A stretch of DNA of 64,000 nt. Origin: an uncultured Alphaproteobacteria bacterium. GTDB lineage: Bacteria > Pseudomonadota > Alphaproteobacteria > ATCC43930 > CGMCC-115725. Below the pieces are notes generated by a model. That model made no database searches. It was not told the DNA's origin and saw only the letters and a program-made list of their open reading frames with translations. The stretch spans positions 643,168 to 707,167 of the forward strand of contig CAWCOH010000002.1 in assembly GCA_963797115.1 (NCBI GenBank). The letters run 5' to 3'. The translations under genes and the position numbers were made by a program. Shown in pieces: positions 23,045 to 39,451 of the stretch (the first letter of the stretch is position 1; the number at the start of each line of letters is the position of its first letter).

Positions 23045-24373
23045 CTAAGCCGAGGAGATTTCCCGGCCACTTTTGTTGGCTCCGATCCTTACGCCGCGAT
23101 AGGACCGCCATGCGGCGAGCAATCCCGAGGAGCGGACCAATTGAGGACGGATGGTCCCGGCCAGCTCTTGATAACGGCGCTCCACGCGACGCGCCTGCTC
23201 GTCGAGGTCGCCTTCGCGACGTACGATGTCGAGCGCGTTTCTGGCGAGCTTTGCCCGTAGGCAAGGGTCCTCCAGCAAGCACGTAATCCCATCGGCGATC
23301 GCTTCGGGGGTAGCTTCGACGAAATAGGCACTCTCTTTATGCCGCACGATCTCTTCGTATCGCGCCAGCTTGCTGAGCACGTTGGGGGTCTCGCACGCCA
23401 TGCTCTCGAGGAGGGTCTGGGGCAGCCCGTCCGAGGAGGGCACCGCAACGGCGATCTCCGCCAGACTATAATACCGTGGCATCTCGGCGTGATCGATACG
23501 CCCGCAGAGCAAGACATGCTGGCCAAGGCCCAACCCCTCGATAAGTCGGGTGATCTCGGACCTGTAGTTGGGATCGGGCGAATATTCGGTCACTAGGAGG
23601 ATCGCCTCGGGAAATATCCGGCTTACCGTTGCCATCGCCTTGACGACGAGGTGGACACGATAGAGCGGCCGCAAGATTTTAGGGCTGAGAATCACCCGCC
23701 GATGCGAAGCGAGCCGTAGGGATCGCCGCAACTCTGAAGCCTCAACGCGTCGAAATTTGGCGACCGGGACGCCCCAAATGATACGCTCGGCTTTGCCCCC
23801 GAACCCCCCCAGTTGGTCGAGCACGTCGCTCAAGTAGTTCGATTTCGAGGTGATGTAGTCGGCCTTTCGCAACAATTCGAGCGTCAACCATTTCCCCACC
23901 GGGGTTGGGCTCCCCTGCTCCTCGAACAACACGTCCCCGCCCATAACGGTCACAACCAGGGGACGGCAACTCAGCACACCGGCGAGCCAGCCATAGTAGC
24001 TGTAGGCGAAATGGACGTGCACGATATCGGGGCGGCACCGACGCAACAGCCGGATAAAGGTGATCACCCGCCACGCGTCGTCGACCTTCCTCCCGCCGAT
24101 CCTGCGGGAGCCCCACAAGATCAACCGAAACCAGAACCTTCGCGCGAACTCAGGGTCGAGGGCCGGCACCAATTGAGTGACGCCCTCAATCCCGGCGGAG
24201 CTTGCGGTCTCGGTAATGAGGTAGACCCGGTGACCCATTTCGGCGAAACAGCGTGCACGCGCCGCAACGTGGGTGCTCTCGGCGGCGCCGATCAGGCAGA
24301 GAGTGAGCTTCCTGCTCGTCGGAGGCGCAATTGGCCCGGGCTCGACCCGGGCCAAATCCGCAAGTGCGCTCAC
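23045..24373 (-). CDS. GT4-type glycosyltransferase
   Basis: 442 aa with an N-terminal Rossmann LTLCLIGAAESTHV, VHVHFAYSY and the E..E-type C-terminal block SDGLPQTLLESMACETP. 4-nt overlap with the upstream AsnB gene. Confidence 0.85.
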   Translation of the reverse strand: MSALADLARVEPGPIAPPTSRKLTLCLIGAAESTHVAARARCFAEMGHRVYLITETASSAGIEGVTQLVPALDPEFARRFWFRLILWGSRRIGGRKVDDAWRVITFIRLLRRCRPDIVHVHFAYSYYGWLAGVLSCRPLVVTVMGGDVLFEEQGSPTPVGKWLTLELLRKADYITSKSNYLSDVLDQLGGFGGKAERIIWGVPVAKFRRVEASELRRSLRLASHRRVILSPKILRPLYRVHLVVKAMATVSRIFPEAILLVTEYSPDPNYRSEITRLIEGLGLGQHVLLCGRIDHAEMPRYYSLAEIAVAVPSSDGLPQTLLESMACETPNVLSKLARYEEIVRHKESAYFVEATPEAIADGITCLLEDPCLRAKLARNALDIVRREGDLDEQARRVERRYQELAGTIRPQLVRSSGLLAAWRSYRGVRIGANKSGREISSA

Positions 24374-26298
24374 CCCGGCAACCCCGGCTCGACTGCCGGC
24401 GTCGGCATCGGAGCGAGGCAGTCGCGCCGATCGACGAATTTTTGGTACCAGAGCTCCAACATCAACAGCGCGAAGATCTTGTTCGAAGCATCCACCCGCC
24501 CCGAGAAGTGGTCATCGAGCAACGCTGTCACCCGCTGGGCGCGGTAGAGGCCACGCCCGCTGAATTGTGCACTCGCGAAACTGTCGCGCACGAAATCCTT
24601 CAATTGCGCCCGCATCCACAGCTTCATCGGGACGTTGAAGCCTTGTTTCGGCCGATAGAGAATCGGCTTAGGGAGGTGAGCCTCCATCGCCTTCTTGACG
24701 AGATACTTGCCTTCGACGCCCCGTAGCTTGTGCCGGGAAGGCACCCTGAACGCCCACTCAACCAGATGGTGGTCGAGGAAGGGCACGCGCGCCTCTAGCC
24801 CGTGCGCCATCGTCATCCGGTCCACCTTCGTCAACATCTCGCTGACAAGCGTCGTCTTGATGTCGGTATAGAGCTTGCGCTGAAGCTGATCCGTTCCGGG
24901 CGCGTCGTCGAGACAACGTTGCACGACGTTGTCGTCCAGCGCGTCCAGAATCGGTCTGGCGAAATCGGGCTCCAGGAGTTCGGCCAAATCCTCGCGGTGG
25001 AAGCATGCAAAAGACCGAAGATAGCGTCCGTCTCGAGGCGAAATAGACCGGCGCCGCCGCCGCAGGGTTGCGGGCACGAGGCCGGCCAGCGCCCCGATCG
25101 CGCGCAATGCGGGCGCGAAGCCATTCGCCACGGCCCCGGCCACGCCCGAGATCGGCGGGAAATCCGCGTGGCGCCAGACATAGCCTGCGAAGACCTCGTC
25201 GCCACCATCGCCACTGAGCGTCACCTTGACGTGCCGCCGTGCAAGTTGTGCCAAAAAGTATAGCGCGAAGGCTGAGGAGATGGCGAAGGGCTCATCGGAA
25301 TGCCAGACGACCCGAGAGAGACCATCGACCAGATCCGGGGTGAGGTTGAATTCGTGGTGACGGGTGTTGCAATGTCCAGCGACGGCGGCAGCATAGTGGC
25401 TCTCGTCAAATTCGGCCAAGCCTGAGAAAGTGATGCTGAAGGTTTCGATCGGCGTCCGTGCCATCTGCGCCCCGACGGACACAATCGCGCTCGAATCGAC
25501 ACCCCCGCTCAGGAACGCTCCGACCGGCACGTCGGCAACCATGTGCGATCGCACCGCCGTTGCGAAACGCGCCTCGAACTCTCCGCATGCCGCCTCTAGG
25601 GATAGGCAGGGGTCCGAATCGATCGTGAGATCCCAGTAACGACGCCGTTCGATGCCGCGGCGGGTGACCTTCAGGTAGTAGCCGGGCGGCAATTTTTTTA
25701 CCCCTTTGAGAATGCAGCGCGCGTCGGGAATGCTAAGGAGCTGTAAGTACTCGGCGAGTGCGGTGTCATCGATCTCGCTTGCCACTCGTGGGTCGGCCAA
25801 AAGCCCCTTCATCTCGGAGGCGAACAGAAAATGCCTTTCGTCAGCGAAATAATAGAGTGGTTTGATGCCTAGGCGGTCGCGCGCGAGGAGTAGGCGTCGC
25901 TGGCGCGCGTCCCAGATTGCAAGCGCAAACATGCCGTCGACTTCGTCGAGAAAGCTCTCGCCCCGCTCTTGGTAGAGCCGGAGGATAACTTCGGTATCCG
26001 ATGTCGAGCGAAACCGATGGCCGCGGTGCCGCAAGCCCTCGGCCAGCTCGCCATAATTGTAGCACTCGCCATTGTAGGTGATCCAGATCGCACCGTCGTC
26101 GCTACCCATCGGCTGGTGGCCGCCGGGCGAAAGGTCGATGATCGACAATCTCCGATGACCGAGGCCGATATTCCCCGAAAGCCAATGGCCGCTGTCGTCC
26201 GGGCCGCGATGCGCAATAAGATCCGTCATCCGTTGGAGCAAATGCGGGTCGACGCGCGCCGCCGGATCAAACTCGAAGATCCCGGCAATACCGCACAT
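24370..26298 (-). CDS. AsnB-family glutamine-dependent amidotransferase (paralogue 3)
   Basis: 642 aa with MCGIAG, RLSIIDLSPGGHQPM and the PP-loop FLSGGVDSS. Confidence 0.93.
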   Translation of the reverse strand: MCGIAGIFEFDPAARVDPHLLQRMTDLIAHRGPDDSGHWLSGNIGLGHRRLSIIDLSPGGHQPMGSDDGAIWITYNGECYNYGELAEGLRHRGHRFRSTSDTEVILRLYQERGESFLDEVDGMFALAIWDARQRRLLLARDRLGIKPLYYFADERHFLFASEMKGLLADPRVASEIDDTALAEYLQLLSIPDARCILKGVKKLPPGYYLKVTRRGIERRRYWDLTIDSDPCLSLEAACGEFEARFATAVRSHMVADVPVGAFLSGGVDSSAIVSVGAQMARTPIETFSITFSGLAEFDESHYAAAVAGHCNTRHHEFNLTPDLVDGLSRVVWHSDEPFAISSAFALYFLAQLARRHVKVTLSGDGGDEVFAGYVWRHADFPPISGVAGAVANGFAPALRAIGALAGLVPATLRRRRRSISPRDGRYLRSFACFHREDLAELLEPDFARPILDALDDNVVQRCLDDAPGTDQLQRKLYTDIKTTLVSEMLTKVDRMTMAHGLEARVPFLDHHLVEWAFRVPSRHKLRGVEGKYLVKKAMEAHLPKPILYRPKQGFNVPMKLWMRAQLKDFVRDSFASAQFSGRGLYRAQRVTALLDDHFSGRVDASNKIFALLMLELWYQKFVDRRDCLAPMPTPAVEPGLPG

Positions 26299-26307
26299 CA
26301 GAGAAGC

Positions 26308-27318
26308 TTATGGCCCCGCAGGCTTTATCGCCCGCGCCTCGACGCCGTTGCCGCCATAGCTCGCCTCTATATTCTGGAGGCCGAGGCGCTGAAGGAGGAC
26401 GGCGATTTGCTCCACAGTACGCTTGTGCTTGTAAAAGTCGGTCAGTGCGTCATGAGTATCGAGAGCGGCCCACGCGTATAGGAGGCGGGGCCCGAGCCGG
26501 CTGTAATAATCGTGATAGTCCAGTACGGGCGAGAGCTGAAGCCAGCGTCTACGCCCGGCAGCGATCCAGCGATAATCGGACAGGCGCCACAACAGCCGAT
26601 GCGTTGGCCACAGGATCGTCACGATGGCCCGAACGAGGGCCAGCGCAAATCGAGGACTCCTGCGAATCAGAAATGCCCGCAAAAGTTGACGAACCCGCGT
26701 CATGTCGCTCGCGTCGTATCGATAGTGGTCAATGATAAGCGAACCTCCCGGCTTGACGAAATCACAGAGAACCGTGATCGTTTCTTCGGGATCGGGTGTG
26801 TGTTAAATCACGCCGAGGCAAATCACGAAATCGAACGCTTCCCGGCGCGCCGGAAGCTCGCGCAGATCGGCTTGACAGACAAAATAACCCGCCGCTCCAC
26901 GGCAATTGTCATAATTGGCTTCGACCGCCGCGGACAGGTCGCTTGCAAACACCCGGGCTCCGTGTTTAAGCAACAACTCGGTGAAACGACCCGCGCCACA
27001 TCCCACCTCCAGCACATTCTTGTCGCGAACCACGGCCAACGACCCGCCGAGGCAGCGTGTCAGGCGATCTCGTGAAATCGCGGTACCGGTAGAAGAATCG
27101 AGCTGCGTGCGTCGGTATCTCTTCCATTGCTCGCCGAAGCCGGCAGCATAACCGTCCCAACCGACAAATCGCGGGACACTGCGTACGACAGGGATGCGGC
27201 ACCCGGATCGGCAGACGATTGTTCGGGTCAAGGGCGTTATATCTATGGCGCCCTCTTCGCTCAAGAGTGGAAAGCCGTGTGTGAGGCAACACAGTTCTTC
27301 GGGCAGGCGCATTGGCAA
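26308..27318 (-). pseudogene. class I SAM-dependent methyltransferase interrupted by one in-frame TAA
   Basis: ORFs 26803-27318 and 26308-26703 lie in the same frame. Read-through gives ...VLEVGCGAGRFTELL...FDFVICLGVI*HTPDPEETITVLCDFVKPGGSLIIDHY..., a complete methyltransferase fold. The stop (minus strand, 26803-26805) sits where Q or E is expected before the conserved H. Confidence 0.8.
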
Positions 27319-31730: not shown

Positions 31731-33312
31731 TCACTGCGTTTGCACACCGCGGAAGTGGCGGCGAAAGCTTGTCCGCATCCGTCGGAGTGGCGATAATAGC
31801 CGAGACGGGAAAACCTGAGAGAGCCGTACCTGGATCCGAAACAGCGCGAATTTCACTATGGACCTTGACTGGGAGTGGTCCATCTCGCCGACAAGTGGAC
31901 TGGTCTCCCTGATAAATTCAGATTGCACATAACTAAGCTCGCGGGCGAGACGCCCTGTCTCATTGATAAATTCCGATCTTTCAGAGCAGAGTTCGCGGTT
32001 AAGTCGACAGGTTCGTCGGCAAATCTGGATCGCAGACAGTTGAGGTCATGCTTCAGCGCGTCGTTCTCGGCAGAAAGTTGCCGGTACTGATAAAAGATTA
32101 CATCCCGAGGAACTGGCGTCGGCTCCTCCATTACAGTCGGCGACGAGGCGAGAAGCGTCTGACACACTGGTAATGGTACCGCTTGAGGTACGCAGAGCGA
32201 CTGTGTTGCGGCCAACTCCTCACGCTTGCGCCCGATCGCGTCATCGATGGTCGCGACAAAACGATGATAATCGTAATCGGAGGCAACGAGATGGTCGTAG
32301 GCGCGATCCGCCAATGCGTTCAGCCCGTCGATATTGTCGATTTGATCGAGAACGTGATCGACGTTCGAGAAATCTTTTCTCAGTTCGATATAATGCTTGC
32401 CGGATTCCATTATTCCGGAGTAGCGCCCACTGATCAGCACCATCGGCGTTCCCGTTGCCAGCGCCTCGAACGCCCTCGGGGATATTTGGCCCATTTCGAT
32501 GTCATTTTCACGAGGGTCGGCATAATGCCGAAACTCCTCATAGGTTGGTGCGCTACCCTTTTTTAGTTCGAGTTCGTTGTACTTAGGCCGCAGGCTGCCG
32601 TCGAAGTCGAAGATATTCGAACCGCTCTCGGTTCCGAGAGCGGTTCGGCAGCGCCCCAGGAAATCGTACCAAGCCTTGCCATAAAAGCGGCTTATCTCGT
32701 CGGTTTTAATGTCACAATCGATACTTCGCGCCGCACTTATCTCACGCATGCGTCGGCCAATCTCGTATTTGTCGAAGCCTAAGCGCCCGTAATGACCGCG
32801 AATTTGACGTCCCCGATTAGCCGATCGCGATCGGCCTTTGGGCTAATGGTATCCGAGTCCGCCAGCTGACCTTCAGCACCGACGGCACGTAACCGGTCAA
32901 CACGGTGATGAATTCCGTTTCGGGAAACATTCGGCTCGGATAGACAAACTCGTGCGACTGCGACGGCACGCAGGTGAAGACTAGGTGGAAACCGATCTCC
33001 CGAATGGCCTCACGCAGAGCGTTGGTCCGATCGTACTCGTCCTGAACGGCGATTAGGCGAACGCCGCGAAAGCTTTTTGAGAGCGTCGATATATGATCGA
33101 CTTACGTGACCGAAAATACACAGTCTTGCACAATAGCTGTTAAGAACGGCATCGAATTGGTTTAGATCAAAATCGACTTCTACGCCCTGCGTTACATGCA
33201 CGTAGCTGACATCGTATGAGGAGTAACGCTTTATACTCGAAAGATACTGCATGGTCGTCGCCACATGCGTCGCCGCGTTCGAATAGGCGACGAGCAGCCT
33301 GCCGCCTGTCAT
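31731..33312 (-). pseudogene. decayed paralogue of the CgeB-like module and coiled-coil tail of the 988-aa glycosyltransferase
   Basis: Homology to the 988-aa protein continues across at least three frame breaks. (1) 33010-33312 (LLVAYSN...VEVDFDLNQFDAVL) shifts frame near 33080 into FRGVRLIAVQDEYDRTNALREAIREIGFHLVFTCV. (2) A 1-nt insertion gives RPIAIG-TAA at 32817-32819, where IGYRGRQIRGHYGRLGF is expected. (3) The coiled-coil tail RSEFINETGRLARELSYVQSEFIRETS...RTSFRRHFRGVQTQ lies in another frame (31731 to about 31990). Confidence 0.78.
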
Positions 33313-33352: not shown

Positions 33353-35269
33353 TCAGGCGGCGGCCGCGCCGCCGGTTTCCGCCATCGGCGCCGCGATTTC
33401 AGCCGCGGCGCGATCACCGGGAGCATCAGTAAGACCGCGGATGACGACAGCCACCGGTAACTCTACTAATCCCAGTGCGATCGAGCCGCTGTAATCTTCA
33501 TTCACCTTAAAGTAGATACATCGATCCCAGTGACACAAGAAAGGAATTCGATGTGAGTGGGGCCAATGATAGTCGAACATCGGAAGCAGTTCGAAGCTTC
33601 CGACGTATTCTCCCTGGCGTATATTGGGCCGGTCGAGACGAAAGAGAACTTCGGTCTTTCCAAGTGCAAGGCCAGCCTCGAACTTGTGAACGCCGAGAAA
33701 CACACGATTGCCTTGGGCGTCGAAGATAATCCCAGCAAGCCAGCAAATCGGAAGCCGAACTCGAATTTCGATCGTAATCTTGAACGTGATCGCGTCCCCC
33801 AGCCCAAAGATATGCCGGTCTGCCGCGCCGGTGGCCTCGCAAGTGGAAATGCGCAGAAAGCGGGCTTCCTCAGTTTCCCACTTGTCCCGTGGGGCATCGA
33901 GTGGACCGCCATCTGATGGCGCGACATCATTACCCATCGTCGAGCACACATCTGCGACGCCAGTGTCGCCGACGAAAACATCCGGGGCGGTAGGGGCGAT
34001 CGCCACCTCATCAATTCGCCAAACCCGCGTCCTGTCGTTCTGGGTCAGAAGACCGAGGCGTCGAAAACCACCCGGTTCGTGGAGTTCGATTGCGATTTCT
34101 TCCCCCGGCGCGGCATCGTGCTCGATTTCGAACAACCTCGCTGAGCCAGCTAAGTCCGCAGGAACGCGAAAAAATATTGGGGCATGTGCATAAATGCCAC
34201 CAGTGTCTTCCAGACAACGCACGCGGCGCCCAGCGGTGAGGGTAGGCCGGCTCCAGATCATTAAACTGGGGTCAGTTTGGATATAACCCGGCTGCGTTAC
34301 GTCATTGTCCATTGGTTCGCCCAGCCACACCTCAAACCGTTTGCCACCGTCAAAAACAAGCGCCAAGCGATGCACTGCATGGCTGAGCGTGGGCAGACCC
34401 CCGTCCGCTACAACCAAACGAAACAACATTTCTTGCTCGTCGCTGCAACCTTCATCGGAGCCGTCGCGGCGCCGCATGCGTGAGACTGCCTGGCTGGTTT
34501 GGGCCCGCAGCCGCGCCTCCTCGCGTTCGATGACCGAGGCATAATAGGCTTTACTGATGTCGAGCGTCGGTCCTTCCGCCTTGATCCGGCCGCGGTCGAG
34601 CCAGATCGCCCGCTCGCACAACCTCTGCACACTTGAGATGTCGTGACTGACGAACAGGACCGTGGCGCCGGTTTCCTTAGTCAGGCGTCGCATCCGCTCG
34701 GTACACTTGCCCGCGAAATAAGCGTCGCCCGCCCCTAGTATCTCGTCGATGATGAGCACCTCGGGAACAATCGCAGTGGAGGTCGAAAATGCCAGCCGCG
34801 CATACATCCCGGTCGAATAAGTCTTGACTGGCTGGTCGATGAATTCGGCGAGTTCGGAAAAATCGACGATCTCCTCGAAGCGCTCGGCCGCATCGCGCCC
34901 GGTGATCCCTTGATAGGCGAGTGCGGAGTAGATGTTTTGCCGGCCGGTAAACTCAGGGTGGAAGCCGGTACCGAGATCCATCAGCGCCTGGATCGCGCCT
35001 CGGACCCGGACCGAGCCGGAGCTCGGCTGCAACCGTCCGCAGATGATGCTCAGAAGCGTTGATTTGCCGGCCCCGTTTTGACCGATAATGGCGAGGCTTT
35101 CGCCCCGCCGAATCTCAAGTGAAATCCCGCGCAACGCCCAGAACTCGTCGCAAGCATTTTTCGGCAGTGGTAAACCAAGGGCCTCGAACACCCGGTAACG
35201 CGGATGCCGGTAACGCTTGAACACCCGCGAAACGTCGTGCACCGCTATCGCGGTATTCTCCTCAGACAT
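33353..35269 (-). CDS. wzt: polysaccharide ABC-exporter ATP-binding protein Wzt with a long two-part C-terminal extension
   Basis: Walker A GQNGAGKSTLL, the signature region YSTGMYARLAFS and Walker B LIIDEILGAGD. About 390 extra residues follow. The last ~150 (FLRISTCEATG...ITFKITIEI...GIIFDAQGNRVFLGVHKF...LRLDRPNIRQGEYVGSFEL) look like a Wzt_C beta-sandwich carbohydrate-binding module. Confidence 0.9.
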   Translation of the reverse strand: MSEENTAIAVHDVSRVFKRYRHPRYRVFEALGLPLPKNACDEFWALRGISLEIRRGESLAIIGQNGAGKSTLLSIICGRLQPSSGSVRVRGAIQALMDLGTGFHPEFTGRQNIYSALAYQGITGRDAAERFEEIVDFSELAEFIDQPVKTYSTGMYARLAFSTSTAIVPEVLIIDEILGAGDAYFAGKCTERMRRLTKETGATVLFVSHDISSVQRLCERAIWLDRGRIKAEGPTLDISKAYYASVIEREEARLRAQTSQAVSRMRRRDGSDEGCSDEQEMLFRLVVADGGLPTLSHAVHRLALVFDGGKRFEVWLGEPMDNDVTQPGYIQTDPSLMIWSRPTLTAGRRVRCLEDTGGIYAHAPIFFRVPADLAGSARLFEIEHDAAPGEEIAIELHEPGGFRRLGLLTQNDRTRVWRIDEVAIAPTAPDVFVGDTGVADVCSTMGNDVAPSDGGPLDAPRDKWETEEARFLRISTCEATGAADRHIFGLGDAITFKITIEIRVRLPICWLAGIIFDAQGNRVFLGVHKFEAGLALGKTEVLFRLDRPNIRQGEYVGSFELLPMFDYHWPHSHRIPFLCHWDRCIYFKVNEDYSGSIALGLVELPVAVVIRGLTDAPGDRAAAEIAAPMAETGGAAAA

Positions 35270-36047
35270 ATTCGGCGAACACCGGTTTCAGGCGTCGAAA
35301 CAATTCGAAGCCGAGCCAAAATGTGCTGAAGGCAATGACCGTAAAGAACAGCCAGAACCGTGGTGAAAATACTCCGAAGATCAGCACCTGCCGATAAAGT
35401 TCGATTATATAAAATAATGGGTTGAGATAACCGATCGCCAGCAGCTGATGAGGAATCATCTCGCGCGTGTATCCGATTGGAGAGACGATCATCAAGAACA
35501 GCACGAATATGCCGATGGCCTGCGCTGTATCGCGCAAGAAGACGTTCATCGCAGATAAGATCCAACCGACCCCAATCGAAAATATTATCTGCAGCAACAG
35601 CAATGGGATGATCAGGACCTGGGTGAAATGAAACTCCCCGCGGCTCCACAGCGCAAAAAGCAAGCCGACGAGACCGATCGTCATTGATAAAGAGCTAGAC
35701 ATCACAGATTTAACTGGTACTAGCTCGATTGGAAACATCGTGTTCTTGATAAGATGTTTGTTGCTGACTACCGAGCTTACAGAGCTGCCCAACACTTCGG
35801 CGAATCCGATAAATGGTATCAGCCCCGCGAATATAATGAGGATGTATTCGATCGGGGAGTAACTTTGTAGCTGTACTCGTAAAATCAGTGCGTAAATGCT
35901 AGCATAAAGTCCGAGAAAAAGAAACGGATAGAGAATCGCCCAGCTCAAACCGAAGGCGGTCCCGACGTAGCGGGAGCGTATTTCCACGAGGGTTGTGGCA
36001 TACAGGATCCGCCGCGATCGAAACAACAGTCGCAGGGCACTGATCAA
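35262..36047 (-). CDS. wzm: ABC-2 type polysaccharide exporter permease Wzm
   Basis: 261 aa with six hydrophobic segments. It is AT-richer than its surroundings, overlaps wzt by 8 nt and has the typical N-terminal LF.SRR....T..EIR.RY..T.LG..W. Confidence 0.88.
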   Translation of the reverse strand: MISALRLLFRSRRILYATTLVEIRSRYVGTAFGLSWAILYPFLFLGLYASIYALILRVQLQSYSPIEYILIIFAGLIPFIGFAEVLGSSVSSVVSNKHLIKNTMFPIELVPVKSVMSSSLSMTIGLVGLLFALWSRGEFHFTQVLIIPLLLLQIIFSIGVGWILSAMNVFLRDTAQAIGIFVLFLMIVSPIGYTREMIPHQLLAIGYLNPLFYIIELYRQVLIFGVFSPRFWLFFTVIAFSTFWLGFELFRRLKPVFAEYV

Positions 36048-38950: not shown

Positions 38951-39451
38951 TCAAGCTGCTTCCACCGCCTCCGCGTGGAGCTGAGCACGCACGACCCGTC
39001 CGAGCAATTCGAGCAGCACAACGACGCGATCCTGATCGCGCAACTCGACCAGCCTGCCGACCATGTCCTCAAGCGCCCCTGCGGTCACCCGAACGAGGTC
39101 ACCGAGCCGCAACGATTTGCTCGGATCGAGTTGGTCGAAACCGCCAGCCTTCTCCCGTTCCCGTATCGCGGTCACGATCTCAGATGGCACTGGGGCGGGC
39201 TCATCCCCGGCGCGGATAATATCGGCGACTCCAACCGTCGAAAGGATGGGGCGCCAGCGCATCGACGCCCGATCGATGCCGGCGAAGAGGTAGCGCGGAA
39301 ACAGTGGACGCAGCACCATCTGGTGACGTCGCGCGTGACTGATCCGCTTACGATAGCACGGAAGATAGGCTGAATAACCCTGCCGCAGCAGGTGCTGAAC
39401 CGCCTTGGTCTCGTCACGCGGCCGCGTGTGGACGGCGTACCAGCGCATCAC
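38951..39451 (-). CDS. specialised NusG paralogue (RfaH/LoaP-like transcription antiterminator)
   Basis: 166 aa. NGN domain WYAVHTRPRDETKAVQHLLRQGYSAYLP...LFPRYLF and a KOW-like GDLVRVTAGALEDMVGRLVEL. It lies at the head of the glycan locus and overlaps the MarR gene by 4 nt. Confidence 0.85.
   Translation of the reverse strand: MMRWYAVHTRPRDETKAVQHLLRQGYSAYLPCYRKRISHARRHQMVLRPLFPRYLFAGIDRASMRWRPILSTVGVADIIRAGDEPAPVPSEIVTAIREREKAGGFDQLDPSKSLRLGDLVRVTAGALEDMVGRLVELRDQDRVVVLLELLGRVVRAQLHAEAVEAA

Follow-up and report, generated by a model that had tools for sequence, protein, structure and literature searches.

The single in-frame TAA that interrupts a methyltransferase gene in a polysaccharide locus of this uncultured alphaproteobacterium very likely arose as a miscalled base in the consensus of a metagenome assembled from long (Nanopore-type) reads, at a GANTC motif presumed to be methylated, and the gene is probably intact. 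The window, meaning the whole stretch of 64,000 nucleotides that was analysed, lies on contig 2 of a genome with 7 contigs, 6.75 Mb, 63% G+C, a completeness of 96%, and a contamination of 4.9%. We infer the sequencing platform of this genome, the methylation, and the true base at the site. The true sequence would read GTG ATT CAA CAC, containing GATTC; the base beside the methylated adenine on the other strand would have been called A for G, giving T for C on the coding strand. The corrected gene would encode an intact class I SAM-dependent methyltransferase of 334 residues.

An interrupted class I methyltransferase gene

The features of the interrupted gene are as follows:

26308..27312, minus strand: full methyltransferase frame, 334 residues with read-through, delimited by Pfam, alignment, and AF2 model
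26803..26805, minus strand: in-frame TAA, codon 170 from the ATG at 27312, in the column of an invariant Gln
26805..26809, plus strand: suspect site AAATC (GATTT on the coding strand), one transition from GAATC/GATTC, with 26805 as the suspect base (position 669972 of contig C2, plus strand)
26308..26703, minus strand: downstream open reading frame at an internal ATG, a Met codon of the intact gene and no separate gene

On the minus strand, the sequence around the stop reads GGC GTG ATT TAA CAC ACA CCC GAT, and the open reading frames 26803-27318 and 26308-26703 share a common frame. The sequence-only reading had proposed that one TAA splits a single class I methyltransferase, and the profile match bears this out. 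In the read-through frame, Pfam Methyltransf_11 (PF08241) covers residues 103-196 with E=8e-18 and 65.3 bits against a cut-off of 21.2, and the match runs continuously over the stop. By itself, the upstream half covers profile positions 1-69 of 95, and a Pfam search of the C-terminal half alone gave no match. The start is probably the ATG at 27312, two codons 3' of the previously proposed TTG at 27318, because homologues begin MRLP.

The stop occupies the column of a Gln present in 23/23 aligned homologues (55-81% identity), within an invariant Q-H-T-P block; the earlier statement that it replaces the Q or E ahead of the conserved His thus holds, with Q as the residue. All 90 of the other residues invariant in these homologues are kept in the window protein, 40 of them 3' of the stop, and the stop is the only lesion found in the gene. 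Identity to the closest syntenic orthologue is 74%, and the intact neighbour genes score 60-82%. When the 23-homologue alignment was used as a test for a true pseudogene, it revealed no further lesions and no relaxed constraint. A single lesion in a gene whose remainder is conserved must therefore be either very young or unreal. Among the best 120 of thousands of homologues, those with full query coverage are unbroken single proteins of 324-376 residues, with the closest at 81% identity. Intact orthologues are present in two genomes of the same genus, and a homologue with 60% identity occurs in the culturable Bradyrhizobium pachyrhizi PAC 48.

The gene product is a class I SAM-dependent methyltransferase by profile, SAM motif, and fold. 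The glycine-rich SAM loop after β1 (E104-x-G106-C-G108-A-G110) and the acidic residue after β2 (D127) are invariant in 24 sequences. The AF2 model of the read-through protein (pLDDT 90, pTM 0.88) has a seven-stranded Rossmann-like fold; the protein consists of an N-terminal Cys-rich β ribbon, a class I Rossmann-type core, a helical insertion, and a final β hairpin. In this model the stop falls past β4 (162-168) and ahead of helix 177-185 and β5 (188-199), and the C-terminus goes back to the core β sheet. The top Foldseek matches of the model are all class I methyltransferases; as a source of clues to the substrate, the Foldseek search returned generic class I matches only.

A stop that is decoded, whether by a suppressor tRNA, codon reassignment, or programmed read-through, or a gene naturally split into working halves, is so improbable that it can practically be set aside. 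The fourth base is C, and in E. coli termination at TAA-C is relatively inefficient; a near-cognate tRNA-Gln would also restore the wild-type residue. However, suppressor tRNAs, raised as a possibility by the sequence-only reading, did not materialize: ARAGORN found no tRNA with anticodon UUA, and the only stop reader is a tRNA-Sec for UGA. Recoding is dismissed because there is no UAA-reading tRNA and the terminator of the gene itself is likewise TAA. The suggestions that the two halves could still function and that orthologues might be naturally split at the same point fare no better, as the homologues listed at 55-81% identity are all unbroken. The downstream open reading frame starts 33 codons past the stop, at a Met present in most homologues. 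A two-piece enzyme is dismissed because this frame is missing 31 residues, including β5 and the invariant H-T-P and D-H-Y blocks, and with them nine invariant residues.

GANTC-linked discrepancies are strongly over-represented in the assembly

In Alphaproteobacteria, cell-cycle adenine methylation acts on GANTC, and the stop lies one transition from this motif. GATT precedes the T of the TAA, and a C in its place yields both CAA (Gln) and GATTC; the change is thus the transition GATT[C>T], or [G>A]AATC on the opposite strand. Whether one base change suffices, as was first claimed, depends on the ancestral codon: it does for CAA but not for CAG, which is used by nine of ten orthologues, the tenth having CAA (orthologue L015 reads GTG ATT CAG). 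A consensus error would take CAA as the codon of this lineage, although 9/10 of the orthologues compared have CAG. Of all CAA, CAG, and CGA codons in the genome, only 0.33% have GANT directly 5'. An artefact is favoured because a random nonsense mutation would land on a GANTC-forming site in about 0.3% of cases, while assembly errors there are tens of times more frequent.

Published comparisons show that methylated motifs attract the single-base errors of Nanopore assemblies, and GANTC is one of these motifs in both agrobacteria (PMC12710330) and Brucella (PMC12392509). These published errors at GATC, CCWGG, and GANTC share with the window site the G/A and C/T transitions in or next to the motif. 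They fall mostly in coding sequence, where they create false pseudogenes, and they arise with methylation-unaware basecalling and polishing models, as for the Microflora Danica MAGs. Three genomes of the same genus are uncultured alphaproteobacterial MAGs labelled 'MFD' (Microflora Danica), a collection produced from Nanopore reads with Guppy super-accurate basecalling, Flye, and one Medaka round (PMC12313526). Unlike in the published cases, CcrM is absent from the window assembly and apparently from the genus core, and methylation here is deduced from motif avoidance and the error pattern only.

GANTC-linked discrepancies are strongly over-represented in the assembly by four independent lines. 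The paralogue census compared all long open reading frames with the whole genome by tblastn and used a six-frame filter to remove antisense shadow frames, to which 549 of the 586 apparent stop sites with paralogue support belonged. After filtering, the 2.57 Mb of paralogue-covered DNA contained 15 isolated in-frame stops, two of which are of the GANT/T type (binomial P=0.001 against the 0.33% background). An unfiltered genome-wide scan for stops between coding-like frames showed no enrichment of GANT followed by a stop, and antisense shadows predominated in it. Non-shadow stops flanked on both sides by 80 or more open codons number 567, and 13 of them lie in GANT context. Besides the methyltransferase, Pfam domains span four of the 12 GANT/T stops:

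CcmF-like gene: GANT/T stop at C3:173647, with Pfam Cytochrom_C_asm across it
Monomeric isocitrate dehydrogenase: GANT/T stop at C6:116587, with the Pfam domain across it at E=3e-193
KdpD: GANT/T stop at C2:594782, with the Usp domain across it
ThuA: GANT/T stop at C5:989709, with Pfam ThuA across it

The remaining eight comprise six that are ordinary gene ends or were judged so by eye and two ambiguous ones, in a TPR regulator and a BNR protein. The proportion of domain-spanning stops (4/12, versus 1/10 control stops) is not significant alone. PF03971, the monomeric isocitrate dehydrogenase family, has one match in the genome, with one TGA inside, and the two genes of the Iso_dh family are LeuB and tartrate dehydrogenase by NCBIfam cut-offs. 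The genome encodes no isocitrate dehydrogenase other than this interrupted one, whose loss is unlikely in a free-living soil bacterium.

The rRNA operon is present in two copies:

C1:289851-295931: rRNA operon copy
C6:97289-103373: rRNA operon copy

Nine positions differ inside the rRNA genes of the two copies, and four of these lie on the operon's six GANTC sites, which account for 30 of about 5,800 bases. Two of the four are G-to-A changes of the first motif base at conserved positions, one in 16S rRNA (CCCA[G>A]ACTCCTACGGGAGGCAGC, in the stretch CCCAGACTCCTACGGGAGGCAGC) and one in 23S rRNA (GCGAAAGC[G>A]AGTCTGAA, in the stretch GCGAAAGCGAGTCTGAA); the other two are one-base indels within the motif. 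The suspect rRNA sites lie at C6:102868-102892 and C6:100188-100211; C1:2114112 is a further suspect site in the assembly. The 16S A-variant also occurs in eight other genomes of the genus, in one of two copies in seven of them, and the 23S A-variant occurs in one other. Genomes of other orders and classes have G in every rRNA copy found at both positions. This copy-specific recurrence at conserved rRNA positions fits stochastic consensus error at a difficult motif, not evolution.

GANTC sites that coincide with the first base of a Gln or Arg codon are intact in about 250 cases and affected in about six. The apparent error rate is thus near 2% per GANTC site, or some 200 wrong bases genome-wide, which is realistic for such an assembly. 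Within the window's own locus, a check of suspect missense-type sites gave no clear excess at GANTT/AANTC beyond the methyltransferase site (3/102 versus 9/501 for controls).

GANTC is strongly avoided in the genus, with an observed/expected ratio of 0.45-0.55 compared to 0.73 in a relative with CcrM. The motif is therefore biologically 'seen'. Depletion of GANTC and excess of GANTT were considered as a sign of error in their own right and rejected; the GANTT excess is natural, because the complete genome of a relative from another family shows the same k-mer pattern.

A true in-vivo mutational hot spot at GANTC, such as deamination of a modified cytosine, would make the GANT/T stops real and recurrent, and this is highly improbable. 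GANTC depletion and GANTT/AANTC excess are seen here and in every relative that was sampled, one of them a complete genome encoding canonical CcrM, and stops are enriched at GANT/T sites. Yet a hot spot would have to break the sole isocitrate dehydrogenase at the same time as it altered conserved positions of 16S and 23S rRNA in one operon copy of the two, and the rRNA changes must have arisen independently in sister MAGs. Deamination also leaves unexplained the clustering of rRNA-operon indels at GANTC, and no cytosine methylase was recognised in the assembly.

The methylase responsible for GANTC recognition was sought by HMM search, motif scan, and tblastn with CcrM of relatives, and neither CcrM nor any PF01555 methyltransferase is present in the assembly by these searches. 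CcrM was rejected as the responsible enzyme on this ground. Genomes of other orders contain canonical CcrM (E ~1e-67), whereas same-genus genomes have weaker PF01555-type matches only. The N6_N4 methylases of relatives, examined at three loci, lie in islands without synteny to the window genome. The assembly does contain several gamma-class N6 methylases. Among the points that count against a consensus error are that no CcrM was found, that the locus sites beyond the methyltransferase are unremarkable, that most orthologues have CAG, and that a C-to-T hot spot would give a similar pattern in protein genes.

The polysaccharide locus and the case for a real mutation

The methyltransferase gene belongs to an operon on the minus strand. 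At the operon head are a wHTH regulator, a NusG paralogue, a WbpB-WbpD fusion, and a WbpE-like aminotransferase, followed by Wzm and Wzt. After Wzt come a remnant of a glycosyltransferase paralogue, a 988-residue glycosyltransferase, a glycosyltransferase-like protein, and the methyltransferase. Next comes the first of the locus's three AsnB-type amidotransferases, and after it further glycosyltransferases and a C5-epimerase. Three epimerase/dehydratases and a UDP-GlcNAc 2-epimerase follow. The features that bear on the argument are:

38951..39451, minus strand: NusG paralogue at the operon head, Pfam NusG E=2.7e-20
35262..36047, minus strand: Wzm ABC-2 permease
33353..35269, minus strand: Wzt ATPase of 638 residues, with a nucleotide-binding domain at residues 8-248 and a two-module C-terminal extension
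33500..33883, minus strand: Wzt_C-like carbohydrate-binding module, approximately residues 463-590, by Pfam and Foldseek
24370..26298, minus strand: AsnB-type glutamine amidotransferase, starting 9 nt past the methyltransferase stop, the conserved partner

The remnant at 31734-33077 is a paralogue of the 988-residue glycosyltransferase and contains frame changes and a stop, none of them at GANTC. Besides the interrupted gene, the scan of the locus genes recognised no methyltransferase, which agrees with the sequence-only reading in this respect.

Wzt has the C-terminal extension that had been described for it. Residues 8-248 match the Aquifex aeolicus Wzt structure 8DKU (E=7.9e-62), and the 390-residue extension consists of an extra β-rich module of about 150 residues between the ATPase and the binding domain, followed by a last module with the fold of Wzt binding domains. 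Pfam Wzt_C matches the window Wzt with E=8e-5 and 23.1 bits, under the 30.4-bit cut-off, and PF14524 is precomputed in 13/22 Wzt homologues. A sequence profile search of the Wzt tail against the PDB gave no match. The AlphaFold model of the tail has a mean pLDDT of 71, with 76-90 over most of the last module. The top Foldseek match of this module is 8DKY (E=2.7e-6), followed by 5HNO (3e-4) and 2R5O (9e-4). The last Wzt module is thus predicted to fold like known Wzt carbohydrate-binding domains. Its target TM-scores against the Aquifex (8DKY/6O14), K. pneumoniae O12 (5HNO), and E. coli O9a (2R5O) domains are 0.55-0.70; identity to these solved domains is 14-20%, and the Pfam Wzt_C match is below cut-off. 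8DKY is the A. aeolicus Wzt binding domain with bound 3-O-methyl-mannose, a methylated terminal sugar.

A real, recent nonsense mutation or major strain allele that inactivates the methyltransferase is unlikely, although the TAA is what the consensus contains. True decay does occur in the locus, as in the glycosyltransferase remnant with its lesions off GANTC, and about 13 of the 15 isolated stops of the census have no GANTC link and may be true pseudogenes. On the other hand, random nonsense mutations would rarely hit a GANTC-forming site, where assembly errors concentrate; the methyltransferase lacks a second lesion and keeps all conserved residues; and every other locus gene scanned is intact. 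Of the three options first put forward for the stop (inactivation, sequencing error, or functional halves), the GANTC evidence thus favours a sequencing or assembly error, and the functional halves are rejected. Were the stop real, the NusG paralogue should lessen its polar effects on genes further along the operon.

Role of the methyltransferase and its meaning

The functional reading of the methyltransferase is drawn from gene neighbourhood only, as seen in 14 independent loci with a homologue from Bradyrhizobium, Geobacter, Acidobacteriota, Nitrospiraceae, Gammaproteobacteria, and others. An AsnB-like gene adjoins the homologue in about 11 of these loci, and eight of the 14 have Wzm and a Wzt of at least 400 residues within 10 kb. 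One of them (L029) has the order Wzm, Wzt with Wzt_C, methyltransferase, AsnB, and glycosyltransferase. Wzm, a Wzt with a carbohydrate-binding tail, the methyltransferase, an AsnB-like amidotransferase, and a glycosyltransferase thus form a recurrent cross-phylum module, and the enzyme probably methylates the glycan. It may do so at the non-reducing end read by Wzt, or it may act on a uronic or amino sugar jointly with the amidotransferase.

The sequence-only reading had cast the enzyme as the chain terminator read by the Wzt binding module. A capping role is plausible but unproven, and it is a fair hypothesis because the gene order mirrors the 'transport-elongation-termination' (TET) operon of P. 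syringae. The link to the amidotransferase is tighter, however, and a modified uronic or amino sugar would account for it just as well. In the P. syringae TET operon for CPA, the order is wzm-wzt-methyltransferase-glycosyltransferase, and insertions in the methyltransferase result in rough LPS (PMC7820976). This likeness is one of gene order: it is mirrored in the distant loci L028 and L029 and more loosely in the window. The glycan pathway of the window makes a 2,3-diacetamido-uronic acid, whereas that of P. syringae makes a rhamnan, and an amidotransferase is inserted beside the window methyltransferase.

WbdD of E. coli O8/O9a and Klebsiella O3/O5, a chain-terminating methyltransferase or kinase-methyltransferase, is a model for the chain-terminator proposal, with a class I SAM methyltransferase, an ABC-dependent O-antigen locus, and a Wzt with a carbohydrate-binding module in common. 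The homology it would predict was not found: WbdD is absent among the PDB sequence matches (25 by phmmer and the 60 listed of 84 by profile) and the top 50 Foldseek matches. In contrast to WbdD, the window enzyme contains no kinase domain, its 334 residues having only methyltransferase domains by Pfam, and no long C-terminal coiled-coil ruler or membrane anchor. Instead it carries a Cys-rich ribbon at its N-terminus and a helical insertion, and its family is consistently paired with an AsnB-like amidotransferase. Judged by sequence and predicted fold, the methyltransferase is not WbdD-like. The chain-terminator proposal therefore keeps its support from the neighbourhoods and the P. syringae precedent and loses its tie to WbdD.

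RfbT/WbeT, which adds the terminal 2-O-methyl group in V. cholerae O1, is likened to the window enzyme by role, as it is also a methyltransferase of an ABC-transporter-dependent O antigen. Its natural nonsense and frameshift alleles change the antigen, and their loss of function is real and tolerated, whereas the window stop is probably an artefact. These systems supply the precedents for a real mutation. Mutations in rfbT/wbeT convert V. cholerae from Ogawa to Inaba with the O antigen retained (PMC9929944), and in P. syringae Tn5 insertions in the methyltransferase gene beside wzt cause rough LPS (PMC7820976). A real stop could have effects anywhere between a block in export, the WbdD outcome in O9a, and antigenic change only, the rfbT outcome in V. 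cholerae (PMC9929944). An enzyme that caps the chain for Wzt would leave the glycan uncapped and poorly exported, and one that merely decorates it would leave an antigenic variant without the methyl group.

A more specific version, in which the stop is real, the methyltransferase and its AsnB-like partner make a non-reducing-end cap read by Wzt, and the organism is a natural capping-deficient variant, is quite improbable. If true, it would define a chain-terminator family distinct from WbdD and spread over Alphaproteobacteria, Acidobacteriota, Geobacter, and other lineages.

With the stop read instead as a consensus error, a GANTT/AANTC in-frame stop or an odd rRNA base in this genome should be distrusted before a pseudogene is called, and the same apparently applies to its sister long-read MAGs. 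Apart from the methyltransferase, the affected sequences seen include the sole isocitrate dehydrogenase of the genome, KdpD, ThuA, the CcmF-like gene, and the 16S and 23S rRNAs. Two leads follow for the biology of these bacteria. One is the set of indirect signs that GANTC is methylated in a genus where no CcrM is recognisable. The other is the methyltransferase-amidotransferase pair, which travels with Wzm and a binding-module-bearing Wzt across phyla.

Stops at GANT followed by T outside the window

The in-frame TAA in the window's methyltransferase (26803-26805, minus strand) is a probable consensus error at a site where C in place of T would restore GANTC, the candidate methylation motif. 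Elsewhere in the same genome (contigs of the assembly are numbered C1, C2 and so on), five genes are each cut by one in-frame stop in this context, and these are probably consensus errors of the same class.

Genes cut by a single in-frame stop whose T follows GANT (stop position, stop codon, gene)
C6:116587, TGA, isocitrate dehydrogenase, the genome's only one (gene C6:115448-117658)
C2:594782, TGA, KdpD
C5:989709, TAG, ThuA-like gene
C3:173647, TAG, CcmF-like gene
C1:2114112, TAG, uncharacterised secreted protein

GANTC sites, candidate methylases and rRNA operons

GANTC is strongly avoided in this genome and in three others of the genus (G011, G012 and G013), with observed/expected ratios of 0.45-0.55. 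Neither CcrM, the GANTC adenine methylase of Alphaproteobacteria, nor any other PF01555 methylase is found in the assembly, and there seems to be no core methylase of this kind in the genus. An unrecognised GANTC methyltransferase may be present; gamma-class N6 methylases with lengths of 611, 761 and 1167 aa are the candidates.

The genome's two rRNA operons, C1:289851-295931 and C6:97289-103373, differ at nine positions inside the rRNA genes, four of which lie in GANTC sites. The C6 operon has A rather than G within conserved parts of the 16S and 23S genes. The same A variants recur in sister MAGs of the genus, and 16S sequences derived from these MAGs may therefore include this error.

Interruptions in other contexts

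On the plus strand of C1, an in-frame TGA near 1857473 falls exactly at the end of a match to Pfam GRDB, the glycine/sarcosine/betaine reductase selenoprotein B (context ...AILVAN-TGA-PVCHQT...). The genome contains a tRNA-Sec gene, and this TGA is therefore probably a selenocysteine codon and not a lesion. Near 3366349 on the same strand, a gene with a Piwi domain, resembling prokaryotic Argonaute, is interrupted by a TAG; the surrounding sequence, GACTAT TAG GATCTC, does not give a GANTC context. For C1:2783758-2783832, ARAGORN reports a tRNA whose identity is not called and whose anticodon is given as four bases, 'ctcg'; its anticodon loop may be enlarged, or the sequence may contain an indel error.

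Within the window, 31734-33077 (minus strand) holds a decayed paralogue of the 988-aa glycosyltransferase, matching its N-terminal module and basic tail. It has two frame changes and one in-frame stop; because none of these lesions involves a GANTC site, it looks like a true pseudogene.

Wzt, a relative's locus and the methyltransferase module

In the predicted structure of Wzt, the ABC-transporter ATPase (33353-35269, minus strand), a second beta-rich module at residues about 278-423 separates the ATPase from the Wzt_C-like module and is modelled confidently (pLDDT 80-95).

In a relative with 76% identity (L027; ENA ERZ25039468 contig_83613), the syntenic locus has many genes in two or three pieces, including DegT, two AsnB genes and epimerases. 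Such splits are what indel errors typically produce in long-read contigs of low coverage, and they are a reminder of the range of quality in this data source.

Across the homologous loci in other genomes (L013-L029), spanning at least five phyla, an AsnB-type amidotransferase nearly always adjoins the methyltransferase family found in the window, often accompanied by FnlA/B/C-like epimerases and a UDP-GlcNAc 2-epimerase. The methyltransferase and the AsnB-type amidotransferase form a conserved module.
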